Positions 6,566-33,083 of a DNA stretch of 64,000 nucleotides are shown piece after piece. Under the pieces are notes generated by a model. The model worked only from the letters and a program-made list of their open reading frames with translations, had not been told where the DNA came from and ran no database searches. Every line of letters begins with the position of its first letter. The first letter of the stretch is position 1. The position numbers and the translations under genes were made by a program. Origin of the DNA: Blastocatellia bacterium (GTDB lineage Bacteria; Acidobacteriota; Blastocatellia; UBA7656); assembly GCA_036277095.1 (NCBI GenBank), contig DASUNP010000004.1, positions 115,300 through 179,299 of the forward strand, in the 5' to 3' direction.

Positions 6566-6567
6566 TC

Positions 6568-14013: not shown

Positions 14014-14040
14014 ACAATCGCGCGCCCTTCGAGCAGGCCA

Positions 14041-16156: not shown

Positions 16157-16221
16157 AATTACTCCGCGAAAGTAAAAAGTATAACTAGACTCTTATGGGT
16201 TTCAAAACAATTGCTATTAAC

Positions 16222-17436: not shown

Positions 17437-17439
17437 AAT

Positions 17440-17509
17440 CAGAATCAGAAGTCAGGAGTCAGAAATCAGAATCTTTATTTGCTCCATGTCCTCATTCTGA
17501 CTTCTGACT
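17440..17509. repeat. hairpin built from TCAGAA-like tandem repeats between the hom stop and the lysC start
   Basis: Left arm gagtcagaaatcagaat (17456-17472) pairs with right arm attctgacttctgact (17494-17509) over 16 bp with one mismatch. The loop is about 21 nt. The right arm overlaps the hom stop codon. Confidence 0.6.
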
Positions 17510-18773
17510 ACTCAAAGACTCGAAGCACGAGGCCGATGCGCAGTGTCGTCGCCTGAGCTTCGATCTCGCGGATCGCGCGCGCGACGTTGCGCTCGCTGCT
17601 GCGATGAGTGAGCAGAATGATGGTCGCGTCCCCCGTGTCGGTCACTCCCCGCTGCACAAGACTGTGAAGGCTTACCTGATGGCTGCCAAGGGCGTGGCCT
17701 ATATTACCTATCACGCCCGGCGAGTCCTGGGTTTCAAGACGGATATAAAACGCGCTCTCGCCGTCTTCGACAGAACAGACCGGGACTTCGCTCGCATCTA
17801 TTGTGGGCTGAAAGTAAGGCGCGAAATCAGGCAGCCTGAGCGCGCTGGCGAGGTTTATCAAATCCCCCACGACCGCGCTTGCCGTCGGCATCTGGCCAGC
17901 TCCGGGGCCAACGAGCATCACCTGCCCAACGGCGTCACCGCTAATAAAAATTGCGTTGTTTGCTCCCTCGACCGACGCGAGCAAGTGATGCAAAGGGACT
18001 AGCATCGGGTGGGCGCGAACGTCTAGACACCCGTCGCCTCTGCGCGCGAGCCCAATCATCTTCACTCTGTAACCGAACTCTTTTGCGGTCTTCATGTCCA
18101 CGTCGGTCACTGCCGAGATTCCTTGCCTGTAAACCGATTCGGCATCCACGAAACGACCGAAGGCAAGCGAAGCCAGAATGGTTATCTTGTAAGCCACGTC
18201 GAAGCCTTCAACGTCGTTGGTCGGGTCCGATTCGGCAAAGCCGAGCTGTTGCGCGCCACTGAGCGCTTCATCGAAGCTTTGGCCGCGCCCTTCCATCTCT
18301 GAGAGGATGTAATTAGTCGTACCGTTCAGAATACCCGCTACGCTCGAAATCTTGTTCGCCTCCAGGCCCCGTTGAATAGTCGAGATCAGCGGAATGCCGC
18401 CGCCGACCGCAGCCTCGAAGAGGATCGTGACGTTGTGATGATTGGCCCGATCGAAAAGCTCGGAGCCATGCGTCGCTATCAGCTCTTTATTCGCAGTGAC
18501 AACATGCTTGCCCTGCTCTATGGCGCTTCTAATAACTTCGTAAATAGGCTTGATCCCGCCCGCGACTTCGATAATTATCTCGACCTCCGGGTCTCGGACG
18601 ATCTCCATTGGGTCTTCGGTCAGGCGAACCGTCGAAAGGTCCACCTTGCGCGCCTTCGTTTTATCGCGCACCGCCACCCACTTGATTCTGAAGCGCGGGT
18701 CGTCCGATAAGAGTTTGATTACGCCTGTCCCGACTGTGCCGAGGCCGAGTATGCCTAAAGTAATCTTCGCCAT
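17508..18773 (-). CDS. hom: homoserine dehydrogenase
   Basis: NAD-binding GILGLGTVGTGV, catalytic domain and C-terminal ACT domain. Start trimmed to MAKITLGILG. Confidence 0.85.
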   Translation of the reverse strand: MAKITLGILGLGTVGTGVIKLLSDDPRFRIKWVAVRDKTKARKVDLSTVRLTEDPMEIVRDPEVEIIIEVAGGIKPIYEVIRSAIEQGKHVVTANKELIATHGSELFDRANHHNVTILFEAAVGGGIPLISTIQRGLEANKISSVAGILNGTTNYILSEMEGRGQSFDEALSGAQQLGFAESDPTNDVEGFDVAYKITILASLAFGRFVDAESVYRQGISAVTDVDMKTAKEFGYRVKMIGLARRGDGCLDVRAHPMLVPLHHLLASVEGANNAIFISGDAVGQVMLVGPGAGQMPTASAVVGDLINLASALRLPDFAPYFQPTIDASEVPVCSVEDGESAFYIRLETQDSPGVIGNIGHALGSHQVSLHSLVQRGVTDTGDATIILLTHRSSERNVARAIREIEAQATTLRIGLVLRVFE

Positions 18774-18910
18774 CCGAGCTGTCCTTCGCAGAATTGACAC
18801 GTCAGAGTAGCTGACTATCGTCCCCAGCGCAACCGCGTTGGCGATGGTGCGCATCTTTGACAATGCGCGCCGCCGCGCCTAGAATGGGCATCTGCTGGAT
18901 GGCTAAAGGC

Positions 18911-19477
18911 ATGCGAATCTCGAAGGTCTATACGAAGACGGGCGATGGCGGGGAGACTTCGCTCGTCGGCGGCGCGCGCGTGAGCAAGGCCAGCCCGCGC
19001 GTAGATGCCTACGGCGATGTCGACGAGCTTAATTCTCTGATCGGACTCGCCCGCTCGCTTGGCGATGACAGTGAGATAGATGAAACGCTGGCCCTGATCC
19101 AGAATGATCTTTTTACCGTCGGCGGAGACCTGGCTTCGCCTCTGGGGATCGAAGTCCCTCGCGTGGCCGAGAGCTTCGTCACGACTCTTGAAGAATTATC
19201 CGATCGCTTCCTCAAAGAGCTGGAGCCGTTAAAGGAATTTATCCTGCCGGGCGGGTGCGAAGCGGGCGCGACTCTCCACCTTGCGCGAACGGTCGCCCGC
19301 CGCGCGGAACGGCGCGTGGTCGCTCTGGCCGAAACGGAAGAAATCAATTCTGAAACGATCGTTTATCTGAACAGGCTCTCGGACCTGCTCTTCATCCTTG
19401 CGAGGAGCGTCAACCGCCGCGCGGGCGTGCCGGAAAAAATGACGGATTTCAGCAGGAGGAGCCGTACTAAGTCCTGA
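18911..19477 (+). CDS. ATP:cob(I)alamin adenosyltransferase, PduO type
   Basis: [18 protein letters not shown]...[15 protein letters not shown] is the hallmark N-terminus of PduO/MMAB-type adenosyltransferases. Confidence 0.8.
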
Positions 19478-19518
19478 GTGCTGAGTGCTGAGTATTATCT
19501 TTTACTCAGCACTCAGGA
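19473..19518 (+). terminator. stem-loop (15-bp perfect stem, GAGTGCT x2 tandem unit) directly after the adenosyltransferase stop and before accD
   Basis: cctgagtgctgagtgctgagta (19473-19494), loop ttatctttt, then tactcagcactcagg (19504-19518). No U-tract follows, so it may be a processing or stability element rather than a canonical intrinsic terminator. Confidence 0.5.
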
Positions 19519-19530
19519 CTTTCAAAAGCT

Positions 19531-20409
19531 ATGTCGTGGTTTAAGAAAAAAGAGCGACCGAAGACTACAACCCCTGACGAGGAGAAGACTGTTCGGACCG
19601 AAGGGCTGTGGATTAAGTGCCTGGGCTGCGAGCAGATGCTTTTCAAGCGCGAGATCGAAGAGAACCTCAGCGTCTGCCCGAAGTGCGGTCATCACCGTCG
19701 CATAAAAGCTCAAGAGCGCCTCGACATGACTTTCGACAACTCGGAGTGGTCCGAGTTTGATCGGGGGCTTGAGTCGAATGACCCGCTCAATTTCGTCGAC
19801 ACGAAGAACTATAAGGCCCGCCTGAAAGATATGCAGAAGAGCACGGGCCTGCGCGACGCGCTGATCACTGCCGAAGGCGTCGTTGGCGACCACCACGCGA
19901 TTGTGTGCGCTATGGAGCTAGCCTTCGTGGGCGGGTCGCTGGGCAGCGTTGTGGGCGAGAAGATCACTCGCGCCATCGAGCGCGCGATTCAAACCCGATC
20001 ATCGCTGATTATCTTCTCAGCCTCGGGCGGCGCAAGGATGCAGGAAGGTGCGATCTCGCTCATGCAGATGGCAAAGATCTCTGCCGCGCTCGCACGACTA
20101 GACGACGCAGGTCTTCCATTCATCTCTGTGTTGACCGACCCGACAACGGGCGGAGTCACGGCCAGCTATGCGATGCTCGGCGACCTCAACATAGCCGAGC
20201 CGGGCGCGCTGATAGGCTTTGCCGGGCCGCGCGTCATTGAACAGACGATCAAGCAGAAGCTGCCCGAAGGTTTTCAACGCGCTGAGTTCTTGCTGGCTCA
20301 CGGCATGCTCGACGCGGTTGTTGAGAGAAAGAACCTGAGAGAGTTCATCATCAACTCGCTCGAATTCATGAATCAGAATGGGAAGCCGTCCGCGACCAAA
20401 AAGGCGTAG
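19531..20409 (+). CDS. accD: acetyl-CoA carboxylase carboxyltransferase subunit beta
   Basis: Zn-ribbon CLGCEQ...CPKCGHH followed by the carboxyltransferase domain. Confidence 0.9.
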   Translation: MSWFKKKERPKTTTPDEEKTVRTEGLWIKCLGCEQMLFKREIEENLSVCPKCGHHRRIKAQERLDMTFDNSEWSEFDRGLESNDPLNFVDTKNYKARLKDMQKSTGLRDALITAEGVVGDHHAIVCAMELAFVGGSLGSVVGEKITRAIERAIQTRSSLIIFSASGGARMQEGAISLMQMAKISAALARLDDAGLPFISVLTDPTTGGVTASYAMLGDLNIAEPGALIGFAGPRVIEQTIKQKLPEGFQRAEFLLAHGMLDAVVERKNLREFIINSLEFMNQNGKPSATKKA

Positions 20410-20495
20410 AACGGCCGGTAAGAAAATCTTTTAATGTGCCACTCAACAGACTCCCCGTATCTCCTCATTTATAACCAGACGGTTATTAGCATAAG

Positions 20496-21812
20496 ATGGA
20501 TTATTCCGAATCGATAAGTTATCTATATGGACTCGGACACGAAGTCCTTGCGGCCAAGTACGGTCTGGACAGCACGCGCCTGCTGCTTGAAAAGCTCGAC
20601 CGCCCCGATCTCTCTTTCCAGTCGGTGATAGTGGCCGGGACCAACGGGAAAGGGTCGGTCGCTGCTATGATCGAATCGATCACAAGGGCATCAGGCATCC
20701 GAACGGCGCTATATACATCGCCTCATCTCGTAAGGATCGAAGAGCGCGCGCGCGTAAACGGAGTCAATATCTCTGCCGACGAGTTTGCGCGCCACGCTAC
20801 GGTGATAAGGCGCGCGGCCCAATCGCTCGTGGAAGAAGGCAGGCTAGAGGCGCTGCCGACATTTTTCGAGCAGATGACGGCGATTGCCCTGTCACATTTC
20901 CGAGAAAGCGGCGCGCAACTGGCGGTGCTCGAAGTTGGTTTAGGTGGGCGACTTGACGCGACAAACGTCGTAGACGCTCTATGCTCGGTCGTCACACAAA
21001 TTGACTTCGACCATCAAAACATTTTGGGAAATACGATTGCAGAGATCGCCGCCGAGAAAGCTGCCATAATCAAACCCGGGGCGCGGGCAGTGATTGGCCG
21101 CCAGCGCCATCAGGTGGCCGTCGACGTTTTGATGCGGCAATGTCTTGAGACAAACGTGCTGCCCGTCTTCGCAAACGAGCCGACGGCGGTTTCGATCAGC
21201 GATTACGGCAGGACCACTTTCGATTACGAATCGGGGCGGTCGAACTACAGCCGCATAATGGTCGGGCTGCGGGGCCGTCACCAGGCGCAGAACGCCGCCG
21301 CCGCTATCGAAGCCGCAGAGCTCTTGTCCGATCTCGGATTCGCCGTCAAGCGCGGGGCAATAATTAAAGGGCTGCGGACGGTCCAGTGGCCCGGGAGGCT
21401 TGAGCTGATCGATGATCGCCCTTCGATTCTGCTCGACGGCGCGCATAACCCCGGCGGCGCGCGCGCCTTGCGCGCCTATCTCGAAGAAGTCTGGCACGGC
21501 CCTGTGACATTAGTCTTTGGAGCGATGGGCGATAAAGACATCGCAGGCATGGCCGCGGAGCTGTTCCCGGCCGCAAAGACCATTGTCCTGACGAGAGTCA
21601 AAGACCGTCGCGCGGCTACAAACACAAGGCTCGGGACTTCGGCGCTCGGCGGGACGCGCAACGTGATCTTCACTGAATCGGTCGGCCAGGCAGTCTCGTG
21701 GGCGCGGAGCGTGACGCCGCCCGATGGGTTGATATGCGTCGCGGGCTCGCTTCATCTGGTCGGAGAGGTCAAGCAATGGCTTGAGGACGAAGACGGGCAG
21801 CAACCTTCTTAA
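20496..21812 (+). CDS. folC: bifunctional folylpolyglutamate synthase / dihydrofolate synthase
   Basis: Mur ligase P-loop VAGTNGKGS. Conserved accD-folC gene order. Confidence 0.9.
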   Translation: MDYSESISYLYGLGHEVLAAKYGLDSTRLLLEKLDRPDLSFQSVIVAGTNGKGSVAAMIESITRASGIRTALYTSPHLVRIEERARVNGVNISADEFARHATVIRRAAQSLVEEGRLEALPTFFEQMTAIALSHFRESGAQLAVLEVGLGGRLDATNVVDALCSVVTQIDFDHQNILGNTIAEIAAEKAAIIKPGARAVIGRQRHQVAVDVLMRQCLETNVLPVFANEPTAVSISDYGRTTFDYESGRSNYSRIMVGLRGRHQAQNAAAAIEAAELLSDLGFAVKRGAIIKGLRTVQWPGRLELIDDRPSILLDGAHNPGGARALRAYLEEVWHGPVTLVFGAMGDKDIAGMAAELFPAAKTIVLTRVKDRRAATNTRLGTSALGGTRNVIFTESVGQAVSWARSVTPPDGLICVAGSLHLVGEVKQWLEDEDGQQPS

Positions 21813-21822
21813 GAATAAAATT

Positions 21823-22356
21823 ATGGCTTATGAGCTTATAAAAAGAGATTACATCTATCGCGGCAAGATACTCGATCTGTCAAAGAGTCGCTTCGAGTCT
21901 GCTACTAAAGGCGAAGTCGAAATCGAGATCGTCCATCACAATGGCGGAGCGGGAGCTTTGCCCGTGTTTGATGACAGAACAATCGCGCTCGTCCGTCAAT
22001 GGCGCTACCCGTTGGGTCGTTATTCGCTTGAAATCTCTGCCGGCCGCATCGAGCCCGGGCAGACTCCTGAGATGGCTGCGCGCAGGGAGCTTGAAGAAGA
22101 GGTAGGGTTGCGCGCTGCGAGCCTTACAAAGCTTTGCGAGTTTATTGTAGCGCCGGGTTATTGCGAAGAGCGAATCTACACATACCTCGCGACGGGGTTG
22201 GAAGAGTTCGCCCAAAGTCTCGACGACGACGAAGAGATCGAAGTTGTTCGCCTGCCTTTCGCCGAAGCCCTCGGCTTAGTACGCGCGCGCGAGATCGACG
22301 ATGCGAAAAGCATAATCACTCTGCTCATGGCTGCGCCGTTGATAGAAAACATGTAG
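21823..22356 (+). CDS. NUDIX hydrolase (ADP-ribose pyrophosphatase-like)
   Basis: Nudix box GRIEPGQTPEMAARRELEEEVGL. Start trimmed to MAYELIK, 11 nt after the folC stop. Confidence 0.75.
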   Translation: MAYELIKRDYIYRGKILDLSKSRFESATKGEVEIEIVHHNGGAGALPVFDDRTIALVRQWRYPLGRYSLEISAGRIEPGQTPEMAARRELEEEVGLRAASLTKLCEFIVAPGYCEERIYTYLATGLEEFAQSLDDDEEIEVVRLPFAEALGLVRAREIDDAKSIITLLMAAPLIENM

Positions 22357-22421
22357 AATGATCTGTCAAGGCGTTCAATCGCCGTAGCCCTGCGCCCGAA
22401 TCTACCGTCGAGGTTAGTCTG

Positions 22422-23204
22422 GTGAGCAAGCTCAAGACAACGCTTGTATATCTTTGGGCTCCGCTGGCAAACCTGCTCTGGTATGTCTACACGATCTTGA
22501 TTGGGACGATCTCTCTAATCCTCTGGCCCTTTGACCGGACAGGACGGATGCAGCATTCGTGCGGGCGGTTGTGGTGTCGCATGATTGCCTGGACGATAGG
22601 CGCGCGCCTGAGGGTTTATGGAACGGAATGGCTTTCGCCCGAGGGGCGATACGTCTACATGGCAAACCACGCGAGCCTGATCGATATTCCCGCGCTCTTT
22701 GCTTGCTTGCCCTATCAGTTTCACATTCTGGCGAAGAAGGAGCTCTTTTACGTCCCGTTTCTAGGCTGGTATCTCCGTTCTGCGGGACACTTCGCTATCG
22801 ACCGGAGCGACGCCAGGAGGACCGCGCGCAGCATACGGCGCGTCGTCATGGCATTGCGCAATGGCCGGTCGCTTGCCGTCTTCCCCGAAGGCACGCGCTC
22901 ATCCGATGGCCGTGTGAGGGAGTTCAAGCCGGGGGCGTTCAAGATCGCCCTGCGCGCAGGGGCCGCGATCGTGCCCGTGACGATTAGAGGCGCGCACGAG
23001 CTGCTGCCGAAAGGCTCGCTCGCGCCGCGCCCGGGCAGAGTCGATGTAATAATTGGCGAGCCGATCGAAACAATCTCTTACTCCGAGGCTCAGTTGCCGC
23101 AGTTGATCGCAAGGACGCGGAGCGCGATAATCGACAGCCTTCTTGAGCCTGCTTTAAATGAACGAAAAGAGGCAAGCTTGACCGCACAATCTTCAGGCCG
23201 CTAA
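22422..23204 (+). CDS. plsC: 1-acyl-sn-glycerol-3-phosphate acyltransferase
   Basis: Acyltransferase motifs NHASLID (HX4D variant) and FPEGTRS. GTG start with GAGG 8 nt upstream. Confidence 0.85.
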   Translation: MSKLKTTLVYLWAPLANLLWYVYTILIGTISLILWPFDRTGRMQHSCGRLWCRMIAWTIGARLRVYGTEWLSPEGRYVYMANHASLIDIPALFACLPYQFHILAKKELFYVPFLGWYLRSAGHFAIDRSDARRTARSIRRVVMALRNGRSLAVFPEGTRSSDGRVREFKPGAFKIALRAGAAIVPVTIRGAHELLPKGSLAPRPGRVDVIIGEPIETISYSEAQLPQLIARTRSAIIDSLLEPALNERKEASLTAQSSGR

Positions 23205-23239
23205 ACTGGCATTGCTACTAACGTGCTCGAAGGTAATAG

Positions 23240-24043
23240 ATGTCAGACCAACCGCTGGCCCTAGTAAACGCCGACCATCAAACCGCGCTTGCAAGACCCG
23301 ACCCTGACAATCCGCAATGGGGGCTCATTGGCGGCGTCTGCATCTGGCTTCTCAGTTTCTCGTTGCCGCAAGTAGTGCCAGTGCCATATCTGCTCATCGC
23401 ACGCCAGGCCGGGAAGGTTGTTATCCCGACTCCCGAAGACCTGTCGACCGGCAACCTCGACGTAAGGTTTATCATTATTTCTCTTGTTTCGACCCTTATT
23501 ATCCACATCATCATGCTTGCTGTGTGCTGGGCGGTCGTCACTCAGTTCAGGCGCCTCCCATTCTTCGCCACTCTCGGGTGGCACTGGGCAGGAATGCCTC
23601 TCTGGATGAGAATTATGCTGGTGATATGGGTCCTCGGATTAGTCTTTCTAATCAACATCTTTTTGCCGTACATACTGCCCGATACACAGACCACTCCCTT
23701 CGCGCACATTCTGCGGTCGTCCAAGGCCGCGAAGTATCTTGTCGTCGGCGTGGCCGTGTTGACTGCCCCATTCGTCGAAGAGCTGGTTTATCGGGGAATG
23801 CTTTACTCGGGGCTGCGGAGCCGGCTTCCGGAATCGGTTTCTATCCTGGTAGTGACACTGGTCTTCGCCATAGTCCACATTCAGCAGTACTGGGGGGCAT
23901 GGTCATCTCTCATAGGGCTGACGACGCTCAGCCTTTCCATGACTGTCATACGAGCAAAGACAAAATCGCTTCTTCCCTGCGTGGTTATTCATCAGGTCAA
24001 CAACACGATAGCAGGCTTACTCATTCTCGCCGGTGTTGAATGA
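23240..24043 (+). CDS. CPBP-family (CAAX/Abi) intramembrane metalloprotease
   Basis: Polytopic membrane protein with EELVYRG (the EExxxR motif) and FAIVHIQ (the second His motif). Confidence 0.75.
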   Translation: MSDQPLALVNADHQTALARPDPDNPQWGLIGGVCIWLLSFSLPQVVPVPYLLIARQAGKVVIPTPEDLSTGNLDVRFIIISLVSTLIIHIIMLAVCWAVVTQFRRLPFFATLGWHWAGMPLWMRIMLVIWVLGLVFLINIFLPYILPDTQTTPFAHILRSSKAAKYLVVGVAVLTAPFVEELVYRGMLYSGLRSRLPESVSILVVTLVFAIVHIQQYWGAWSSLIGLTTLSLSMTVIRAKTKSLLPCVVIHQVNNTIAGLLILAGVE

Positions 24044-24046
24044 CCG

Positions 24047-24691
24047 TCACAGCACCCAGAGCGGCCGCGTCGGATAGTAATCTGGCGATTGGCCCGGATT
24101 GCGCTTGCTGAATTCGAGGTAGCGGCGGTGCCATTTCCGATAGCGGGCGTCGGATGAACGGATAGCCGCGTGCGGAATCTCCTGGAGGTGGCGCTCAACC
24201 TTCCACACGTTGCGGAGTGAGAACCTCCAATCGTAATTGCCCAGGTCGTTGAGGTCCGCGACGCTATACCCTGTTATGCGGCCGGTCTTATCTATGTAGG
24301 TATCGAAATAGCTCATCACGAGGTCGCGCACGGTGCGAAAGACGGGTTTGCGACCGTGAAGCCCGATGTCACGGGACCGCGCGACTGAACCGTAACGGTC
24401 GCCTTTCCTATAAAGAAATAAAACGTGGTCCAACAAGTCCTGCGACTCGATACTGACCAGCAGCGGGGGATAGCCCCAGTACTCCAGAATGACTGCCGCG
24501 ACGATCGCCGCCTCCAGACAATGAGCGCGGTTGTTTCTGATGACGCCGCGAAAAGAGAGGAGAGTCCCCCCGCCCTCTTCGCGGTTATAGGGGAGCGAGC
24601 TCAAATACCGCTGGACCTGGTAGGGCGTGCGATGACTATCGATGACGCTCAACTCTTTGGGCGTGAAATCTGATTTGGACGGCTTCATCAC
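24047..24691 (-). CDS. hypothetical protein, possibly a transglutaminase-like Cys-protease fold
   Basis: A Cys in AHCLEAAIV resembles the GxCxxFA environment of transglutaminase-like enzymes, with downstream His/Asp candidates. Weak assignment. The stop/start overlaps the upstream GT39 gene by 4 nt. Confidence 0.4.
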   Translation of the reverse strand: MMKPSKSDFTPKELSVIDSHRTPYQVQRYLSSLPYNREEGGGTLLSFRGVIRNNRAHCLEAAIVAAVILEYWGYPPLLVSIESQDLLDHVLFLYRKGDRYGSVARSRDIGLHGRKPVFRTVRDLVMSYFDTYIDKTGRITGYSVADLNDLGNYDWRFSLRNVWKVERHLQEIPHAAIRSSDARYRKWHRRYLEFSKRNPGQSPDYYPTRPLWVL

Positions 24692-26475
24692 TCGGGCCTG
24701 GTTCCTTTTTCGATCTTGTAAATTATCGCCTCCTGATTATTCGGAATCTCAAAGCTCGCGATCTTTGTGAAGCGCTCAGGCGCAGCCCGCAGAATCTCTT
24801 CGACGCGGCGCTCGGCGGGTGCGACGTAGTCTTCCGGCGCGTAGCCCGTGCGGACAAGAAGATAATCGCAAGTATCTATGCGGTCGAGCGCGGATTCGAC
24901 TACTAGCCAGTCGACGTAGATCAACGGCGGGCCTGCTCGTTCGGGGGCCATCAGGCGCGCGGTCATGCCGATGGTCGACGGATTCATTTGAGGCATGTTT
25001 ACTACAATCCCCAAAATCGCCTGCCCTGCTTCATCGAATATGCCTATGCCTTTCGTCGGAGGCGAGATAGTCTCTTCAGGGGTCGGCTGGCGACCGCTCG
25101 TCTGCCGATTGGCACTCTCAGACCTGTCCCTCATCTTCGCAAGCTCCTGGTCGCGGTGTGCTTTCACAGCCCGGACTATATCCTGGATCTTCCAATCATC
25201 AGACAACGGGTGATGGTCGAAGCCATAATAGTTTCTTGCGAATATCCTCCAACTGAAAAGCGGCAGCTCATAAGAGAGTCCATAACCGTCGCGCGGGTAT
25301 TGCGCATTCATGAAACTTACAACTGACCAAACCACGATAACGGCTGCCAGAGCCGGTTTCAGGGCGCGCTTGAGCTTCGATGCGGGCGACGGCTTTGAGC
25401 TTGTAAACCAACTGACCGACAGCAGCGCGACGGCGGGAAGAATAGGCACGGTGTAGCGAGCGTCTTTGTTTGCTACAAAAGTAAAGGCGATCATCCCGCT
25501 CAGGACCCAGAGGCTGAGCAACGCGGTCCCCTTGCGACGGCGGACCAGCGAGTAGATAAGTCCGAACAGGAAGAGCGCACCAAAAGGAACCTGCACCTGT
25601 GTGCTGAGCAGCGCGTGAACGTAAAACAGGTTCGACCCTATGGTGTAAAGCGGCGCTTCGTTTTCATTGACCGCGCCGACTTGATTCACCTTGTAAATCG
25701 CGATGACATCATCCAGATGCGGGACGTACCAGATGCCTGCGATGACTATTGCAACAGCCGCCGCGAGCACCAGATTCAAAATTGCCTTCGCGTCGCGGCT
25801 GATTAATACGCGGATCGTTATGTAGAGGGCGGGCAGGAAGAAAAAGAACGGGAACGTCTGCTTGGTCAGCATCCCTAATCCTGTGACTACGCCAAATGCA
25901 ACAGCGTGGCGGCGGACCTTAAAATCACCTGCGCGGATGAGCAAGGCGAAACTCAACGCGACTATCGCGATCAACGGGTAATCCAGGAATGCATCGTGGA
26001 CAAGCCACGCGGGGAAGTGGTAACAGACCACGAGCAGAGCTGCCAGAATGCCCGGCCAATAAACTGGTCGCCCGTTGCCGTTTGCACCCTCCAGGCTCTC
26101 TTTCGAGTAAAGGAACCTCGCTGTCCAGTAGACGGAGCCTAACAAGATTGCCAGTGAGATAAAGTTCACGCCTATGCCGGCCAGTCGAGACGCGCCGAAG
26201 ACCAGAAAGACGAGGGCCGTCACGATGTGGACCAGCGGCGCGTAGAAATGCGGCATGGAAAAAAAGTCCTTCGCGAAATCAGCAAACCGGAGGTGCGCCA
26301 GACTCTGATAGTAATCATAACCTGCGCTGATGTGGTCGGCGGGGTCCCAGGGCGGGGGCGTCTTGTCCAACTCGGTCCAGATGATGGTAGACAGACTTAC
26401 ACCCAGGAATAGGATCGCGAGCGGCAATACGTGTTTATAAGGTCGTAGTCTGTTTCCAGTCACGGTAGCGGGCAA
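24688..26475 (-). CDS. GT39/GT83-like (ArnT/PMT-type) membrane glycosyltransferase
   Basis: 595 aa. The N-terminal two-thirds has more than 10 predicted TM helices with a short first periplasmic loop (DxD-like region TELDKTPPPWDPADH). The C-terminal soluble domain is about 200 aa. Confidence 0.7.
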   Translation of the reverse strand: MPATVTGNRLRPYKHVLPLAILFLGVSLSTIIWTELDKTPPPWDPADHISAGYDYYQSLAHLRFADFAKDFFSMPHFYAPLVHIVTALVFLVFGASRLAGIGVNFISLAILLGSVYWTARFLYSKESLEGANGNGRPVYWPGILAALLVVCYHFPAWLVHDAFLDYPLIAIVALSFALLIRAGDFKVRRHAVAFGVVTGLGMLTKQTFPFFFFLPALYITIRVLISRDAKAILNLVLAAAVAIVIAGIWYVPHLDDVIAIYKVNQVGAVNENEAPLYTIGSNLFYVHALLSTQVQVPFGALFLFGLIYSLVRRRKGTALLSLWVLSGMIAFTFVANKDARYTVPILPAVALLSVSWFTSSKPSPASKLKRALKPALAAVIVVWSVVSFMNAQYPRDGYGLSYELPLFSWRIFARNYYGFDHHPLSDDWKIQDIVRAVKAHRDQELAKMRDRSESANRQTSGRQPTPEETISPPTKGIGIFDEAGQAILGIVVNMPQMNPSTIGMTARLMAPERAGPPLIYVDWLVVESALDRIDTCDYLLVRTGYAPEDYVAPAERRVEEILRAAPERFTKIASFEIPNNQEAIIYKIEKGTRPE

Positions 26476-26611
26476 TTATGTGGAATGCTTGCCTGGAAGG
26501 TCAAGCAGAGCTTGAATGTCTGAGAGTACAGCTTTGATCCATGCCCGCTTCGTTCGCATACGGCCAGGCTCGCTTTCAGCGCGCTAGAGGCGCGAACTAA
26601 ACGGGTCAGGC

Positions 26612-26626
26612 TGGCACAGCGGTTGC
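26612..26626 (+). promoter_or_regulatory. sigma-54 (RpoN) promoter consensus: TGGCAC-N5-TTGC
   Basis: cTGGCACagcggTTGCg, with correct GG(-24)/GC(-12) spacing. Lies about 30 nt upstream of an AGGAGG RBS and the ATG at 26655. Confidence 0.5.
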
Positions 26627-26654
26627 GATTATCAACATCAGGAGGGACGAATAG

Positions 26655-26855
26655 ATGTTAGCCGTACTTATACCAATATTGTTCTTCGCGATGCTCACAG
26701 TAGTCACTTTAGCGATTAGCTTTTATTGCGTAGACATCGTCTTGAGGTTAATCGGTCGTGGCCTCTTAAGCCAGGTTGCGCCGTCGCCCGAGCCTGTACG
26801 CGTCCAAACGGTCCACAGAGCTGCCACCGGGCCTTTGCGGGCGCTTAGAACTTGA
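26655..26855 (+). CDS. small hypothetical membrane protein (66 aa)
   Basis: Strong SD (AGGAGGG) 7 nt upstream. The N-terminal 35 aa form a TM helix (MLAVLIPILFFAMLTVVTLAISFYCVDIVL). Preceded by a sigma-54 consensus. Low GC. Confidence 0.35.
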   Translation: MLAVLIPILFFAMLTVVTLAISFYCVDIVLRLIGRGLLSQVAPSPEPVRVQTVHRAATGPLRALRT

Positions 26856-27043
26856 AGCCTTCGTCCTCGATTTCCCTTCGGCCCCCCTCCCTTTGACTCG
26901 CGCAACTTCTTTATCAATGGCGGCTTAACCTACACTTCCTAGTACCGAAACCATCCGGTAATTCTTCACCGCCACGTTCGGCCACTAAGGAATAAAGGCG
27001 CACTTTAGAGACAAAAAACGCTAAATCGATAGGGAGTCTTAAC

Positions 27044-27058
27044 TGGCACGCCTATTGC
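27044..27058 (+). promoter_or_regulatory. sigma-54 (RpoN) promoter consensus: TGGCAC-N5-TTGC
   Basis: aacTGGCACgcctaTTGCc. Lies about 55 nt upstream of the ATG at 27114, with SD GGGGTGA. Confidence 0.55.
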
Positions 27059-27113
27059 CACGGCTAGGTCGGAACGAACAAGGGTTTAGGGTAAACGAAA
27101 GGGGTGACGGGTA

Positions 27114-28193
27114 ATGCGAAGAGCAAGCGCTATCTTACTAATAATCATCTTCGGTTGCACGGGATTTGCGACCGCAGGGCTTGGCAATAATGTAGAGACG
27201 ATTGAGTCCATTCAGCCTCACGTCCTTCACTTAAAACTCAAGGCGGATGACCTGAGAACCATCGCTGACAAGCAGGTAGTTACACATCCGCTCTCTTCGA
27301 AGAACCCGAAAGTCCTGGCGGGGTTCGGCGTTGCCCTTGCGGACGCGACACCGGGAGCATTTGTTGAATCATATAAATCGCTCGATCAGCTTCACAAGAG
27401 CCCTTACGTCATCGAAGCCGGGAAATTCAGCGCAACGCCTAGCCTTGCAGACTTTGCTCGTCTCACGTTTGATGATAAAGAGCTCTATGCGCTATTCAAG
27501 GCGAAGCCAGGAAATTCAAACATAAAACTCTCGGACGAGGAGATCACAAGGATTCGCGCCGCGATCGGACAGGCCGCCCGTTTCACGCCTCAAGTCAAAA
27601 CGCAATTGGCGAGCGAATATAAAAAGCTCCTTGTCGAGCGCGTCAAAGCTTACAGCGCGGGTCGTCCAGCGCTGGGCGTCTTTGCGGACAAGGATAAGCC
27701 TGTAGATGCACAAGAGGCATTCGACTCGCTCGCAGACGAACAGAAAGCAGGGGCCGGGCATTGCTCGCACCTCTACTCGCATCTGGAGAGCTACCCCGCC
27801 GGAGCCACTGCCGAGTCGGAGTCATTCATTTACTGGGCGAAGCAGAGGTTTGGAGATGCCAAGCCGGTTCTTAGCCTCGTCCACGTTCTGATTCACAACG
27901 AAGGCGAGAGAGTATTCATAGCCTCAAAGCAGATCTATTCCAACCATTACACTGAGGCCGCGTTGTCCGTAGCAGAATTGATTCATTTCAAAGACTCGGT
28001 TGGGCACTCGCGCACCGTGATCGCTTACACGATTCGCCTCCAGGCAGACATGCTCGGCGGCACGCTGGGATTCATGAAGAAGCGGATGGCCCAGCCTAAA
28101 CTGCTCGGCACGCTCAAACAGAGCATCAACGGATTGCGGACGAATATGGAAGCTCTGAGCCGCGATTCGAATGCTACGCGAGCGGGATTCTAA
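27114..28193 (+). CDS. secreted hypothetical protein (359 aa) with N-terminal signal peptide
   Basis: MRRASAILLIIIFGCTGFATAG is a signal peptide, possibly a lipoprotein (Cys15). No recognisable domain. Downstream of a sigma-54 consensus promoter. Confidence 0.6.
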   Translation: MRRASAILLIIIFGCTGFATAGLGNNVETIESIQPHVLHLKLKADDLRTIADKQVVTHPLSSKNPKVLAGFGVALADATPGAFVESYKSLDQLHKSPYVIEAGKFSATPSLADFARLTFDDKELYALFKAKPGNSNIKLSDEEITRIRAAIGQAARFTPQVKTQLASEYKKLLVERVKAYSAGRPALGVFADKDKPVDAQEAFDSLADEQKAGAGHCSHLYSHLESYPAGATAESESFIYWAKQRFGDAKPVLSLVHVLIHNEGERVFIASKQIYSNHYTEAALSVAELIHFKDSVGHSRTVIAYTIRLQADMLGGTLGFMKKRMAQPKLLGTLKQSINGLRTNMEALSRDSNATRAGF

Positions 28194-28552
28194 GTCGCGG
28201 GCTGATTCTTGTGCGACTGAATCGCCTGGCGAAGCGACGATGAGGTGATTGCAAAGTGCGAGGCGTTCCAGATCTGACGGCCATCGCGGACAAGTATCGC
28301 TTGAGGGGTTTCGTGGCGAACGCCTAACCGCGAGGCGATTTCATTAGAGATGGGGCGCGCGCTCTGGACCGTTATCAGGTTGTAACTGACCTCGGGGTCG
28401 GCCTTTTCCAGATAGGAGATCAACTCGTTATAAGCGCGCAGGCTGATTGGGCAAGTCAGGCTGTGTTTGAACAGAAGCACAGGCCTCCGGCTCGAATCGG
28501 CAAGCGCCTTCTCTAGCTCTTTTATTTGCCTGATTTCCCTGATCGTTTTCAT
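28190..28552 (-). CDS. YtxJ-family thioredoxin-like protein (bacillithiol-system redox protein family, DUF2847)
   Basis: Diagnostic single-Cys motif LFKHSLTCPIS (TCPIS). Length 120 aa. Confidence 0.7.
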   Translation of the reverse strand: MKTIREIRQIKELEKALADSSRRPVLLFKHSLTCPISLRAYNELISYLEKADPEVSYNLITVQSARPISNEIASRLGVRHETPQAILVRDGRQIWNASHFAITSSSLRQAIQSHKNQPAT

Positions 28553-28793
28553 CGGTCAAATTCCCCCTGCTTCAATACTATTTACAGCGTGAGTCGTCGG
28601 TTTGCAAGCCGTCGGCTAAGAGGGGCTTAAATCCAGGCACAAAAAACTTTTCTGGCGGGCCACGCGCGGAGCCTGAGAAACATCGCAATCCAGGGGAAAA
28701 AGCTGGACGGGGTCGAAAAGAGTCGCCGGCCCGCGCCGCTTGCACACCTTACCGGGCGCGGGATGCCTGGATTTCAGTAAACGGAGTATAAGC

Positions 28794-30536
28794 ATGTGCC
28801 CTAAAGCCATACGCCAGACGCTTGCCGCAACCCTGATCGCGTTAGCTTTGATATCGATGCTGCCCGCGGATTTTGCTTCCGCGGCGCAAAGCTCTGCCCA
28901 GGCTAACCGGCCAAAGCGGGGCAAAAACGGGCAAATAGTGACCGGAAGCGGCTCGCAAAGCGCGCCTGCTCGGAAGACGACGAGCCCGACCGTCGAGCTA
29001 CCGAGGCAGGAGAGCGAACCCGTCGCGGAGGGCGAAGATCTTCCGCCTGCGGCTCAGACCCAGACTCGGACAAAGGCCCCGCCGCCGGTTTCTAGTTCTT
29101 CGCAAAGGACAATGGACAACACGGCGCAGCGCCCGCAGCCGACACAGCAACGCCGCGAGCCGCCACCGTTCGACCGCCCGCCGCTAGACGCAGGGCAGCA
29201 GTCTCAACAGACGTCGCAGCCCCGCGTAACTCAACCCCCTGCGAGCCCTCAAACCGCCGATTCGTCTACGCCTACATATCGGTCGTCGCAAGGCGGGAGG
29301 CCGCGAGTCGAGCAGAGACGGGATGCAGACCCCGCGCCGTCTAATAACGACAGAGGGCGCGCCACCCCGCCGGACCTGGGCGGTTATGATCAACAGAATC
29401 GCAGGGAGAAGGATAAACCCGTGCTTCGCCGCCGGTCGGACCCTCCCGCACGCGCTGAACAGGAGACAGACGATCCGGGTCCAATCGCCTCGTCGAAGTC
29501 CGAATCTACGCCGCCCGTTGATGAAAGCGACGAGGTCAGGCTCGACGCGACGCTCGTCAATATCCCTATACTCGTCAGCGACCGCTCCGGGCGCTACATC
29601 CCGCAACTGTCTCAGAACGATTTTCTGCTTTACGAAGACGGGACCCAGCAGGAGATAGCTTTTTTCGGCGATGAGCAAGTGCCTTTCAACGTCGCCCTTG
29701 TGCTTGACGTCAGCCCGAGCGTCCAGGGGAGCCTTGAAGAGATTCAACGCGCGGCGCTCGAATTCGTGCGCCAGCTTCGCGGCGGCGACCGCGTGATGAT
29801 CGTCTCCTTTGATAAGGACATACATTATCACACGGACTTTACTAGTAACCGGCGCGAGCTTGAATCAGCAATACGCAATACCGAGACCGGGTCCGGGACA
29901 AGCGTGTATGACGCCGTCTATGAAGTCGTCAGCCGTAAGCTTAGCGCAATCGAAGGTCGCAAGGCTTTGATATTGCTTTCCGACGGCGAAGACACGACGA
30001 GCAGCCACGCGAGCTATGACGAGGCTGTCAACGTAGTGACAGAGTCGGACGTGCTGGTTTACGGGCTTCGATACGATAGCGGTGGAGGAGGGAATATAAG
30101 AATAGACCCCTGGCCTCGAAACCGCATCCCGGATCTCCCGATACCGCTGCCCTGGCCCTGGCCCTTCCCGCGCAGGCGCAGAGGCGGAACCTTTGCAGAC
30201 CCGAACTCGATGCTGATGAACGCCGCCCCGACTGTTACAGCAGCGGCGCAGGGACGCGGGCGACGTGGCCGCCAGGGCGATTTCATGGAAGACCTGGCTA
30301 CTGCTGGCGGCGGCCCCGTTTATGACGCGGACAACATCAGCGATTTGAGCCGGCTCGCAGCGCGCGTAGCCGAAGAGTTGCGTCATGTTTATCAAATAAG
30401 CTACTACCCTACGAATGCGCTTACAAACGGTGGGTATCGCTCAATAAGAGTCCGTGTGCGAGGGCGTGACGACATAGCCGTTCGTCACCGTCGAGGCTAC
30501 AACGCTCGCGACGTTGCCACGCGACCTTCGACTTGA
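28794..30536 (+). CDS. secreted protein with C-terminal VWA-like module (tentatively the 'VWFA-related Acidobacterial domain' family)
   Basis: Signal peptide MCPKAIRQTLAATLIALALISMLPADFASA. A disordered region of about 250 aa rich in Pro/Gln/Ser/Arg follows. The C-terminal VWA-like module reads LVNIPILVSDRSGRYIPQLSQNDFLLYEDGTQQEIAFF ... VALVLDVSPS ... ILLSDGEDT ... YYPTN...GGYRSIRVRV. The track ORF starts at 28740; the ATG at 28794 gives the signal peptide. Confidence 0.75.
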   Translation: MCPKAIRQTLAATLIALALISMLPADFASAAQSSAQANRPKRGKNGQIVTGSGSQSAPARKTTSPTVELPRQESEPVAEGEDLPPAAQTQTRTKAPPPVSSSSQRTMDNTAQRPQPTQQRREPPPFDRPPLDAGQQSQQTSQPRVTQPPASPQTADSSTPTYRSSQGGRPRVEQRRDADPAPSNNDRGRATPPDLGGYDQQNRREKDKPVLRRRSDPPARAEQETDDPGPIASSKSESTPPVDESDEVRLDATLVNIPILVSDRSGRYIPQLSQNDFLLYEDGTQQEIAFFGDEQVPFNVALVLDVSPSVQGSLEEIQRAALEFVRQLRGGDRVMIVSFDKDIHYHTDFTSNRRELESAIRNTETGSGTSVYDAVYEVVSRKLSAIEGRKALILLSDGEDTTSSHASYDEAVNVVTESDVLVYGLRYDSGGGGNIRIDPWPRNRIPDLPIPLPWPWPFPRRRRGGTFADPNSMLMNAAPTVTAAAQGRGRRGRQGDFMEDLATAGGGPVYDADNISDLSRLAARVAEELRHVYQISYYPTNALTNGGYRSIRVRVRGRDDIAVRHRRGYNARDVATRPST

Positions 30537-30566
30537 TCGTCCACCAATCCGAGAAAGAATCTTCAA

Positions 30567-30592
30567 AGGTCAGCCGCGAGCTGGCCTTTTTT
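30567..30592 (+). terminator. intrinsic terminator after the first VWA gene
   Basis: AGGUCAGC-cgcga-GCUGGCCU (8-bp stem with one G-U pair), followed by UUUUUU at 30587-30592. Confidence 0.6.
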
Positions 30593-30777
30593 GTCTTATC
30601 TGCCTGTAACCCGTTGATTTCTAAGAGATTACCTGAATGGGTTATATGGTTTTTGTTTGACTCTAATTTCGGCCTGGGCCAGAATGCAACTATCCGCCAT
30701 TCGTTGTCGCCCACAGGCCCAAGGGGCTTTGCAGGCGATGAGATTGTCTTTTCCGGTTTGAATCAGCGGAGGCTAGC

Positions 30778-32970
30778 ATGAAGAACCGAGTCCCCCGACG
30801 CCCGAACTTGATCGTTGCATTGATAATTACACTTGCATTGATGGCCTTAGACCTGACACCCGTCGTAAACGCGCAGGCCGCAGCTTCGCGGGTCGAGACC
30901 TTTAGTCTCGCTCCTGACGGCCAGGTGAGAGTCGAGAACTTGAGAGGCGCAACGAGCATTGAAGTCTGGAACGAAGACAGCGTACGAGTTGTTGCCGAGC
31001 GGAAGACCCCGCCTTCGCTTGCGCTTGAGCCTGCCGACGTGGTTCTGATGAGCGCGCAGAACACTGTCATCATCGAGTGCAGGCAATCGGGTAAACCTGG
31101 TCGAATCGACCTGACGGTTTATCTGCCTGCGTACGCACACATTCAATTAACGGGCGGCACCTGGCCCGTAGAAGTCAACGGGCCACTGGCGAGCGCCGTC
31201 GTCGAAACGACAGGCGGCAGCATTTCTTATCTATTGCCAAAGAGCGATGACGCGCATGTCGTGATGCGGTCGGCGCGCGGCGTCGTAAAATCTACTGTTG
31301 AGCTTGCCGAGATGGAGCGTGTCGGCACGAACAGTCTGCAAGGCAAGCTCGGTGCGGGCACCTCGCCGATCATGCTCAATAGTCGAACCGGCAACATCAC
31401 TCTTTCTCCCGGCGCAAGCTTTTCAACTATCGCTAAAGCTTCATACGGGCGACCCGCTGCGAGCACGCAGGGCGATCAACAGAGCAGGCAATCGCCTGAC
31501 CGGGAGGATCAAGGCTACCGAGGCGACTATTCGCGGCAGTATCCATCCGCGCAGCCTTCACGTGACCCCGATCTGATTATTCCCGGATCACCTAAGCCGG
31601 GGTATGGCGCCTCTCGCGGGCCAGTCTCTTCGGGCGGTCAGAGGTCGAGCGGCGATTGGACTGACCTCGCCGGGCAGCAGAGGGAGGACGACAACAGCAG
31701 CACAAACAAAGGCGGACCGATCTTGCGCCCGAGGGAAGAGAAGATCAATAGCAACAACGGAGCAGGGTTCAGGGTCAGAATAATCCCGGCGGATTCCACG
31801 TCCTCGGGAGCGAGGCGACCCAGCAATCCCATCTATGACGATCCAGTTGAAGAGCAATCACGCAAGCCACAACAGGGCGGCAATCGCTCGTCCGGCACAT
31901 GGTCCGATCAGGCTACATACGATCCTCAAACCGGCTGGTCTGACGCCAAAAAGCCTGCTCGCGTTGAGCTCGCTGAAGAATCTGCAGTCGATAGCTCCAG
32001 CTCAAGCAGACGCGGCGACCCGCCGCCTTCGCTCAGGCGAAGCCCGAGCGGAGAACCCACCCCTGAGGCGTCGCAGCCTGCGGCTTCCAGGCCGGAAGAC
32101 GACGAGATCGTTCTCAACTCTGCTGTGGTCAACCTGAATGTCAGCGTCACCGATAGGTCTGGGCTGGCGCTGGCAAACTTGAAGAAAGAGGATTTCGAAG
32201 TCTATGAGAACAACGAGCGACAAGCCGTTGAATTCTTTGCACCCAGCACAACCCCTTTTAACCTTGTGTTGCTGCTTGACCTGTCCGGTTCGATAAAGGA
32301 CAAGCTCGACGTAGTCAAGGCGGCTGCTTTGCGATTCATAGACGTGATCGGGCCGCAGGACAAGGTCGCCGTCCTCACTTTTACGCACGAGGTGAGGGTC
32401 GTGTCGCAATTGACTGCGAACCGCGACATCCTCCGCAAGCGAATTAAAGAGATCGAAAAGCCCGAAGGCGGCACCGCGTTTTATGATGCGATGTGGTGGG
32501 CGATGCTCGACACGCTGCGAGGCACTGCGGGGCAGCGAAACGCGATAGTCGTGATGACGGATGGCGTGGACAGCTCGCTCGACCGCTACAACCCGGCGGA
32601 GACTCGCGTGACGTTTAATCAACTCGCGCGCAAGCTCGAAGAGTCGGACGTGATAGTCTTCCCGATCTACCTTGATACCGAGTACGAAGAGGTTTTTGTG
32701 CGCGGGAACGGATCGTCCGAGAGTTACGCCATGGCGCGGACGCAGCTTGAGAAGATAGCCGAGCTTTCGGGCGGCCAGCATTTCAAGGCCGAGCAGGCGA
32801 AGGATCTGTCGGGAGTATACAAGCAAGTTGCCGCCGCATTGCGCACGCTTTACAGCGTCGGTTATTACCCGACTAATTCCGAGCGCGATGGCACATACAG
32901 GCGCGTGCGCGTGGGCGTAACACGGCCCAATGCCGCCGTCCGGTCAAGAAAGGGGTATTACGCCAAGTAA
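30778..32970 (+). CDS. secreted protein: N-terminal beta-rich adhesin-like (DUF4097-like) domain, disordered linker, C-terminal VWA-like module (paralog of 28794-30536)
   Basis: Signal peptide. Repetitive beta-strand region (VRVENLRGATSIEVWNEDSVRVVAERK ... IDLTVYLPAYAHIQLTGGTWPVEVNG). The C-terminal module aligns with the upstream paralog: LNSAVVNLNVSVTDRSGLALANLKKEDFEVYENNERQAVEFF ... LVLLLDLSGS ... VVMTDGVDS ... YYPTNSERDGTYRRVRVGV. Confidence 0.75.
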   Translation: MKNRVPRRPNLIVALIITLALMALDLTPVVNAQAAASRVETFSLAPDGQVRVENLRGATSIEVWNEDSVRVVAERKTPPSLALEPADVVLMSAQNTVIIECRQSGKPGRIDLTVYLPAYAHIQLTGGTWPVEVNGPLASAVVETTGGSISYLLPKSDDAHVVMRSARGVVKSTVELAEMERVGTNSLQGKLGAGTSPIMLNSRTGNITLSPGASFSTIAKASYGRPAASTQGDQQSRQSPDREDQGYRGDYSRQYPSAQPSRDPDLIIPGSPKPGYGASRGPVSSGGQRSSGDWTDLAGQQREDDNSSTNKGGPILRPREEKINSNNGAGFRVRIIPADSTSSGARRPSNPIYDDPVEEQSRKPQQGGNRSSGTWSDQATYDPQTGWSDAKKPARVELAEESAVDSSSSSRRGDPPPSLRRSPSGEPTPEASQPAASRPEDDEIVLNSAVVNLNVSVTDRSGLALANLKKEDFEVYENNERQAVEFFAPSTTPFNLVLLLDLSGSIKDKLDVVKAAALRFIDVIGPQDKVAVLTFTHEVRVVSQLTANRDILRKRIKEIEKPEGGTAFYDAMWWAMLDTLRGTAGQRNAIVVMTDGVDSSLDRYNPAETRVTFNQLARKLEESDVIVFPIYLDTEYEEVFVRGNGSSESYAMARTQLEKIAELSGGQHFKAEQAKDLSGVYKQVAAALRTLYSVGYYPTNSERDGTYRRVRVGVTRPNAAVRSRKGYYAK

Positions 32971-32993
32971 GGCTGATTTATGAGAACTGGATT

Positions 32994-33083
32994 CACCGCA
33001 GAGACGCAGAGAACACAGAGTTCACGCAGAGCAGAATTATGTTCTCTCTGCGCCCGCTCTGTGTTCTCTGCGTCTCTGCGGTG
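32994..33083. repeat. 27-bp perfect inverted repeat (CGCAGAGA-type tandem units) flanking a 36-nt loop that itself carries a nested imperfect inverted repeat
   Basis: caccgcagagacgcagagaacacagag (32994-33020) ... ctctgtgttctctgcgtctctgcggtg (33057-83). The arms are exact reverse complements. The inner loop holds cgcagagcagaa/ttctctctgcg. It lies between the VWA paralog stop and the ABC exporter start. Confidence 0.75.

Follow-up and report, generated by a model that had tools for sequence, protein, structure and literature searches.

A 64,000-nt stretch of the genome of a Blastocatellia bacterium (Acidobacteriota), hereafter the window and the only part of that genome covered here, carries in three of its intergenic spacers mirrored heptamer elements, in which a 7-nt unit repeated two to six times is followed by a loop of 17-42 nt and then by the reverse-complement array. 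These elements belong to a recurrent, lineage-wide class united by a common architecture and not by a common sequence, and an origin through slippage plus palindromisation appears to fit the comparative data best. On the interpretation developed below, whose chances we consider evenly balanced, they are palindromic heptanucleotide microsatellites that arise by slippage and inter-arm template switching and are tolerated in the stop-to-start spacers within operons.

An earlier, sequence-only reading of the window had grouped four intergenic structures into one family of hairpins built from mirrored short tandem repeats. All four (L1-L4; Table 1) are present where it placed them and are the four strongest inverted repeats of the window, each flanked by a co-directional gene pair; the gene identities it gave, pdxS/pdxT, hom/lysC and PduO/accD, hold, and its remark that the stems lack a U-tract is borne out, as no T-run follows any of the four stems on either strand. 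Its description of the units as 6-8 nt long stands in part, since L1-L3 do consist of tandem units, of exactly 7 nt, while L4 has only an 8-nt doublet; the grouping into a single family fails, L4 being a dispersed palindrome of fixed sequence, to which we return below.

The edges of L1-L3 lie 0-3 nt from a stop codon and 0-9 nt from the next start codon. L1 begins 3 nt past the pdxS stop and leaves 0 nt before the pdxT ATG, its two arms of 33 nt are 94% complementary, and its sense-strand RNA has a calculated folding energy of -50.2 kcal/mol (z -8.6). The 18-bp stem of L3 is perfect, with TCCTGAG/TGCTGAG units of which the first includes the PduO stop TGA (19475-19477), and ends 9 nt upstream of the accD ATG (-38.7 kcal/mol, z -7.6). 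The arms of L2 are unequal (five to six units vs two); its inverted repeat spans 19 nt at 89% complementarity with a 16-bp stem, covers the hom stop codon (17508-17510) and leaves 0 nt before the lysC ATG (17436). With a sense-strand fold of -25.4 kcal/mol (z -1.3), equalled in stability by 22 of 200 shuffles, L2 is a mirrored repeat whose hairpin, asserted in the earlier reading, is weak and non-significant. The sequences of L1, L2 and L3 are each single-copy within the window, where copy numbers and periods were taken from Tandem Repeats Finder (TRF).

Relatives were collected by scanning species-representative genomes with the Ppx protein encoded in the window (14504-16156, minus strand), which yielded 26 Blastocatellia loci at 63-89% identity, and unrelated Clostridia and cyanobacterial loci from the same scan (233 kb) served as controls; loci from relatives are named L001, L002, L003 and so on. 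Across Blastocatellia the gene order is syntenic class-wide, with pduO leading into accD on one side, hom leading divergently into lysC and ppx on the other, and pdxS leading into pdxT elsewhere in the same arrangement. Three of the loci (L009, L017 and L029) come from records titled 'uncultured Clostridia bacterium' despite their Blastocatellia synteny and a Ppx identity of 67-72%, and these titles are probably a mislabelling of metagenome-assembled genomes (MAGs).

The array census covered the window and 27 Blastocatellia loci, 479 kb in total, and took in tandem arrays from 20 nt upward whose identity was 80% or more, with five dinucleotide shuffles as the null; an array was called mirrored when a reverse-complement 11-mer partner lay at most 170 nt away. 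Period-7 arrays number 55 in this set, vs a mean of 3.0 per shuffle, and 39 of them are mirrored, vs 0 in the shuffles; the control genomes hold ten period-7 arrays, none of them mirrored. Arrays of period 6, 8 and 9 in the Blastocatellia set number 7, 13 and 7, respectively. The recurring class of shared architecture and dissimilar sequence that the sequence-only reading had proposed is thus upheld by comparison with shuffled sequence. A separate search for strong hairpins recovered 28 whose arms are periodic (22 with a period of 7, four of 8 and two of 9), a density of about one per 17 kb, from which, by extrapolation, a 5-Mb genome would carry a few hundred elements.

Several side observations concern the variety of these arrays. 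GGG-rich units are present in some relatives (L018, L025), and an unpaired intergenic AGGGTTT x3 array at L027 18743-18762 has the same unit as plant telomeres. Layered elements occur at L021 3545-3720 and L005 12195-12310, where the arms of one unit family (outer GAGGATN and GGATGAA) surround those of another (inner GAAAATT and AATTTCA) with a GC-rich hairpin at the centre, which suggests stepwise growth or nesting. At the hom-to-lysC junction of L029 (937-1142), two long adjacent arrays, GGGGAGC/GGGGTGC followed by CCACTGA/CCACCGA, are mutually non-complementary, so that side-by-side arrays are possible without a clean stem.

Occupancy was compared at orthologous junctions. L012 is syntenic with the window over 21 kb at about 85% amino-acid identity, and the two differ in occupancy at three of the four element sites: the window has 111 nt between pdxS and pdxT where L012 has 8 nt and no hairpin, and 71 nt between hom and lysC where L012 has 5 nt and again no hairpin. 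The hom-to-lysC spacer is filled in the window, L002, L007, L011, L017, L025 and L029, vs just 5-25 nt in L003, L009, L012, L015, L016, L024 and L027. Many spacers among the 23 conserved gene pairs tabulated are occupied sporadically, and the empty junctions of close relatives are 5-25 nt long or consist of overlapping genes. No target-site duplication was found where filled junctions were compared with empty ones between the window and L012 or L003.

Where elements occupy the same junction, their units differ in a concerted manner. The L3 element has orthologues in L002, L012 and L003; between the window and L012 a single base is changed in all units of both arms (TGCTGAG vs TGATGAG), and L002 has TGCTGAG/TCCTGAG units. 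At hom-to-lysC the window carries (A/T)AGTCAG, L002 carries TAGCCAG with one TAGTCAG, and L011 carries AGGTCAG/AAGTCAG. Unit number is unequal between the arms in L2, L012 and L017, copy number varies between genomes, and the first unit takes in the upstream stop codon. The loops of the pduO-to-accD elements of the window and L002 agree at 3 of 10 positions in direct comparison and at 7 of 10 once one of them is reverse-complemented, which hints at an inversion of the spacer (loop) between the two. Slippage plus palindromisation, which the sequence-only reading had offered as a possible origin, is the account that best fits the differences in copy number between arms and genomes, the unit changes seen in both arms, the stop codon within the first unit and the lack of target-site duplications.

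Selection for pairing in the mRNA should lead G·U pairs to accumulate on the transcribed strand. The 29 elements in co-directional spacers, a sample of limited power, show no such bias, with 90 G·U pairs in sense vs 81 in antisense (Wilcoxon p = 0.85), and the more stable fold is the sense one in 15 and the antisense one in 11 of them. Given no G·U strand signal, the complementarity fits upkeep at the DNA level, and selection on RNA pairing is not visible.

In the mechanism that we favour, replication slippage would expand and contract each array, while template switching between the arms would make the second arm and copy unit variants over, so that complementarity would be kept in the DNA and not through selection on RNA pairing; the elements that survive would be the harmless ones. 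Inter-arm template switching is an established process, known to correct quasi-palindromes, that homogenises and lengthens the arms of inverted repeats and can invert their spacers (PMC8604942, PMC13100816, PMC7202029). According to Mrazek 2007, as relayed in PMC4679880 and PMC4692102, no other long simple-sequence repeats are as abundant in bacteria as heptanucleotide ones, for which slippage of the polymerase has been proposed as the source. Tolerance within operons may follow from the geometry of the stem. In a closed stem that fills the spacer, the stop and start codons would meet at the foot, and a ribosome terminating upstream would unwind about 10 nt past the stop, freeing the end of the 3' arm and the AUG, where the arm abutting the start codon would be C/A-rich and not G-rich. 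Translational coupling would thus outlast an insertion of 70-110 nt at junctions whose stop and start codons lie 2-5 nt apart in relatives, and any effects on mRNA decay or processing would be a locus-dependent by-product.

The elements are also polar. The 5' arm contains more G than C in 25 of 27 periodic-arm hairpins (p = 5.6e-6), a count in which many elements are kin and which comes to about 12 vs 2 when estimated by unit family, and strong hairpins without periodic arms are split 25:25. This polarity is independent of strand because a palindrome reads alike on both. A metagenome scan with the query (GATTTTG)x3 returned at least 120 stretches, 80 of which were taken as loci holding 85 arrays; among the matches listed, 24 of the 85 arrays have a complementary partner, which lies downstream of the G-rich array in 24 cases vs 0, and the 61 unpaired arrays, where they face a gene start, present a C/A-rich leader in 22 cases and a G-rich one in 4 (p = 5e-4). 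Stop-adjacent arrays in the Blastocatellia set have a G-rich sense strand in 25 cases vs 6, a figure that is not independent of the polarity itself. The G-first polarity therefore equals a rule that the C/A-rich copy stands beside the start codon, and its cause could be either translational selection or the generating mechanism. Avoidance of Rho as the cause is weakened, as unpaired arrays with a C-rich sense strand are common upstream of starts.

Several points weigh against microsatellites kept up by slippage and template switching, beginning with this polarity, which slippage alone does not predict, and with the limited power of the G·U test. All four loci of L017 have the unit GGTTTCT, L013 holds 9-mers only and L025 mainly 8-mers, and such genome-specific units and periods are left unexplained by slippage in situ; the GATTTTG elements of the window and L003, moreover, stand at non-orthologous loci. 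Of 13 genomes compared, 12 have a hairpin in the pduO-to-accD spacer, with a unit that differs, being GAGTGCT in the window and in L002 (with a 32-bp stem), GAGTGAT in L012, CGTGATN in L011, TTCCGGG in L015, GGTTTCT in L017, GGGGGCC in L018 and GAGGATN in L021, with remnants in L003 that have a REP-like (repetitive extragenic palindromic) palindrome nested in the loop; persistence of this kind could reflect selection for structure. Finally, the translational-coupling step is one that we only infer.

The persistence of the pduO-to-accD hairpin through changes of unit also speaks for selected RNA elements, that is, terminators or attenuators without a U-tract, 3'-end stabilisers or RNase III sites that tune the expression ratio of neighbouring genes, an explanation that we regard as unlikely. 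It would account for the very stable sense stems at three of the four window loci (z -7.6 to -12.3) and for unit changes that agree between the arms, and it accords with heptamer repeats being mostly transcribed in Xanthomonas (PMC4692102); canonical hairpin-plus-T-run terminators are, in addition, not enriched in window 1-20000 (22 sites vs 22.0 in shuffles), and none of L1-L4 is among the sites of that scan. Against it stand the absence of a G·U bias to the transcribed strand, the sporadic occupancy of most junctions, where the empty or overlapping junctions of relatives need no hairpin, and the presence of elements in the divergent spacer between hom and pduO in L011, L017 and L025. The terminator or pause function that the sequence-only reading had suggested is unlikely in particular, because L1-L3 lie immediately before a start codon, where efficient termination would shut off lysC, pdxT and accD, and because the corresponding junctions of relatives manage with 5-8 nt and no hairpin. 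Intrinsic terminators are rejected on similar grounds, there being no U-tract, L1-L3 not lying at the ends of transcription units and the L012 junctions measuring only 5-8 nt. Among Rfam families at gathering score, a tRNA at 13434-13507 is the sole match in the whole window.

L4 must be set apart from L1-L3, because its fixed sequence recurs at non-orthologous loci. Its stem, put at 27 bp in the earlier reading, measures 29 bp without mismatch and 40 nt at 90% complementarity; periodicity is limited to an 8-nt doublet in each arm (CGCAGAGA x2), the arm being otherwise not periodic (best self-match 0.45), and the sense-strand fold reaches -77.1 kcal/mol (z -12.3). About 100 nt of it, the interior among them, can be aligned with L012 14375-14535, which lies in a non-orthologous spacer whose orthologue in the window (11857-11910) is empty, and a further match occurs in L081. 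The family's end motif ACCGCAGAGRNG has three matches in the window vs 0.09 expected, one of them solo (Table 1). On these sequence comparisons L4 is a palindromic dispersed element of about 95 nt and fixed sequence, of the REP or miniature inverted-repeat transposable element (MITE) kind, and not a heptamer microsatellite, so that the label REP-like, which the earlier reading had offered as one option for all four loci, appears to suit only L4. A VWA-domain gene stops 21 nt before L4 and an MsbA-like gene starts 128 nt after it, and by position alone L4 could qualify as the end of a transcription unit.

A second class of repeat, GTAG-bearing REP-like palindromes of fixed sequence such as CTGTAGGGGCGTCCCTCCGTGGGCGCCCCT and CCCAACTCCGTAGGAGTTG, was seen in relatives, at L002 8381-8731 and L003 6604-6706 and also in L004, L007, L013, L014, L017 and L021; in L002 and L003 such palindromes are nested in the loops of heptamer hairpins. 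None of this class was seen in the window.

The dispersal of L4 raises the question of whether L1-L3 too could be mobile or copy-pasted, being either non-autonomous REP- or MITE-like repeats or arrays propagated through ectopic conversion, disseminated inside each genome before slippage diversified them, a possibility that we hold to be just as unlikely as selection on the RNA. Beyond L4 itself, with its non-orthologous copy in L012, its match in L081 and the solo motif at 50855, this explanation would make sense of the genome-specific unit families and periods of L017, L013 and L025, including a pduO-to-accD unit in L017 that belongs to its dominant GGTTTCT family, and of the GATTTTG elements, whose loci are not the same in the window and L003. 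The genomes of relatives also harbour classical GTAG-type REP palindromes. Elements of the same unit nevertheless have unrelated loops, as the GGTTTCT elements of L017 do among themselves, and L1 and the GATTTTG element of L003 have only GGATTGCAG in common, at the border of arm and loop. L1-L3 also lack target-site duplications and conserved termini, their first unit is fused with the upstream stop codon, and the gradual unit divergence of orthologous elements fits vertical descent. The GT(A/G)G signature at the 5' foot of the hairpin is absent from L1, L3 and L4, and the GTAG of L2 is merely the GAG-TAG end of hom.

A more ambitious reading, which we consider distinctly improbable, sees the arrays not as passive by-products but as something made or acted upon by a trans-acting system peculiar to the lineage, which would set both period and dominant unit, with the mirrored form serving as an element of translational coupling or insulation. 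Such a system could be an activity that adds or copies repeats, or a protein recognising successive units in their register, and would have its period set at 7 in most genomes, 8 in L025 and 9 in L013. The C/A-rich arm would then act as a leader for translation independent of a Shine-Dalgarno sequence, kept hidden by the G-rich arm until the stem was opened by a ribosome terminating upstream, with the polar mirrored arrangement amounting to an evolvable device between cistrons. If true, this would be a self-generating element of translational coupling and insulation new for bacteria.

Least probable of the explanations weighed, and in our judgement very doubtful, is that the arrays act as non-B DNA or as protein-binding sites, with a G-quadruplex (G4) or a single-strand-binding protein (S1, cold-shock-protein-like) at each unit and the mirror copy secondary. 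Unit-wise G4 formation or protein binding has been proposed before for the heptamers of Xanthomonas and Nostoc and for those of Beggiatoaceae, and the strong G-rich-first polarity, the C/A-rich strand that unpaired (GATTTTG)n arrays put upstream of starts among the matches listed, the parallel with TAACTGA repeats ending 1 nt before start codons (PMC4679880) and the GGG-rich units of L018 and L025 could all be read in its favour. The units of the window, however, have at most two consecutive G, which makes a stable G4 unlikely, the units at large are too diverse for a single sequence-specific binder, and the 39 mirrored arrays of the 55 would sit locked in a duplex stem.

The remaining candidates fall quickly: a MITE with target-site duplication does not fit L1-L3, for which filled and empty sites reveal no duplication; an integron attC site, considered because of the architecture without sequence, the position at gene ends and the 7-nt core, is ruled out by the lack of a GTTRRRY core, the syntenic housekeeping genes and the true tandem-array arms; and an assembly artefact is excluded by the recurrence of the elements between intact conserved genes in independent MAGs of different projects and by the reproduction of the 3' arm of L1 in a separate assembly.

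Table 1. Window positions of the elements, the genes that flank L1-L3 and the solo motif of the L4 family
Feature	Position	Strand	Description
L1	5564-5671	-	Mirrored heptamer hairpin, pdxS-to-pdxT spacer; G/T-rich arm 5564-5596 (GATTTTG/GATTTTA units), loop 5597-5638, C/A-rich arm 5639-5671 (AATCCAA x4.6); TRF period 7, 4.6 copies each at 5564-5595 and 5640-5671
L2	17437-17512	-	Mirrored heptamer element with unequal arms, hom-to-lysC; long array 17437-17473 (~5.7 units, (A/G)AGTCAG/AATCAG type), complementary array 17494-17512 (~2 units); TRF period 7, 4.9 copies at 17439-17471 and 2.1 at 17495-17509
L3	19469-19521	+	Mirrored heptamer hairpin, PduO-to-accD spacer; arms 19469-19486 and 19504-19521; TRF period 7, 3.4 copies at 19470-19493
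L4	32992-33085	+	Long palindrome, dispersed fixed-sequence family; 8-nt doublets at 32997-33012 and 33065-33080
L4-family end motif, solo	50855-50866	+	Motif match, ACCGCAGAGGCG
pdxT	4976-5563	-	Downstream of L1; start confirmed by full-length orthologue alignment
pdxS	5675-6565	-	Upstream of L1; NF003215, E 1e-152
lysC (aspartate kinase)	16222-17436	-	Downstream of L2; start ATGCTCGTTCAAAAG conserved in relatives
hom	17508-18863	-	Upstream of L2
PduO-type adenosyltransferase gene	18857-19477	+	Upstream of L3; true start probably later than 18857
accD	19531-20409	+	Downstream of L3; ATG at 19531

Other features of the window include, at 1470-4136 on the plus strand, adjacent genes for a radical SAM protein (411 aa), a TIR_2-domain protein (328 aa) and a 138-aa protein, labelled with Pfam names in the Logan gene table, which could form a defence-type operon, as well as a match to TIGR03436 (acidobact_VWFA), a family that points to Acidobacteriota. 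Sigma-70-like promoter matches in window 1-20000 number 24 vs 10.7 expected, an excess of about twofold. Between convergent genes at 44033-44064 lies a 16-nt sequence directly duplicated without mismatch (ATTGATTGAATCACAA x2); the duplication has TGATT-G-AATCA as its palindromic core and looks like a putative operator. A further direct duplication (GAAGATTATTAAACT x2) occupies 50880-50910, where the genes are poorly defined, and at 57532-57568 a 15-nt unit is repeated 2.5 times within the 56793-58841 open reading frame (ORF). Positions 1-30 of L001 (Logan contig SRR25158523_97440) equal window 5564-5593, and this independent short-read contig ends in the 3' arm of L1 (TCCAAAATCTAAAATCTAAAATCCAAAATC, followed by the pdxT ATG).

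Within the collection of papers searched, none relevant to heptamer or hairpin repeats in Acidobacteria or Blastocatellia was found. Heptamer repeats of cyanobacteria, the STRR sequences, were reportedly described by Mazel in 1990 (cited in PMC4692102). The closest precedent for the Blastocatellia elements is the convergent GGGAATC heptamer pairs of Xanthomonas, which has 70-75 pairs of arrays on opposite strands per genome, convergent and capable of forming stem-loops (Rehm et al. 2015, PMC4692102); in Xcc, 186 heptamer arrays are intergenic and mostly transcribed, 70 inverted pairs among them, and related species carry such repeats between the same genes at differing length and sequence (PMC4692102). 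The Blastocatellia elements resemble these in their 7-nt tandem unit, their intergenic position and the occupation of the same gene pairs with variation in length and sequence, and their G-rich-first polarity recalls the 'convergent' layout. They differ in phylum, in the fraction of arrays that are mirrored (about 70% vs about 40% in Xanthomonas) and in their units: GGGAATC is one dominant, G4-prone consensus, whereas Blastocatellia units vary by locus, with three (GATTTTG, AGTCAGA and GAGTGCT) in the 64 kb of the window, none holding more than GG and none able to form a three-tetrad G4. Diverse units, window units without G4 potential and a high mirrored fraction are thus what separates the Blastocatellia elements from known heptamers.

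Other systems share single traits. Prokaryotic heptanucleotide simple-sequence repeats (Mrazek, Guo & Shah 2007) are likewise intergenic, with a dominant 7-nt period and slippage proposed, and are described, as relayed in PMC4679880 and PMC4692102, as direct arrays and not as polar mirrored hairpins. TAACTGA direct repeats upstream of starts in Beggiatoaceae, cyanobacteria and Bacteroidetes (MacGregor 2015, PMC4679880) are also heptamer arrays within a few nt of start codons and in fixed orientation to them, as are the (CCAAAAT)n leaders here (22 vs 4 among the matches listed), but they have a single unit and are inverted in just 1 of 170 sets (PMC4679880). REP and REPIN sequences, mobilised by RAYT (PMC3116915, PMC8266576), are short extragenic palindromes, many of them transcribed in operons, to which L4 and the GTAG palindromes of relatives are similar; L1-L3, by contrast, lack a family sequence, a GTAG head and evidence of transposition, and their arms are periodic. 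Template switching at quasi-palindromes (PMC7202029, PMC8604942, PMC13100816) would fit the unit changes in both arms and the possible flip of the loop, and is described for single inverted repeats and not for microsatellite arms.

At a practical level, the elements break short-read assemblies of uncultured Acidobacteriota, as where a Logan contig ends inside L1, and they inflate spurious ORF calls, while they could serve as strain markers in the manner of variable-number tandem repeats. That heptanucleotide repeats are the commonest long microsatellites of bacteria has been recognised for some 20 years without an established function or mechanism. By bringing together many different units, syntenic junctions that are filled in one genome and empty in another, unit changes common to both arms, a strict G-first polarity and a rule for the arm beside the start codon, Blastocatellia offer a natural experiment in which the models of slippage with template switching and of a translation leader are directly testable.

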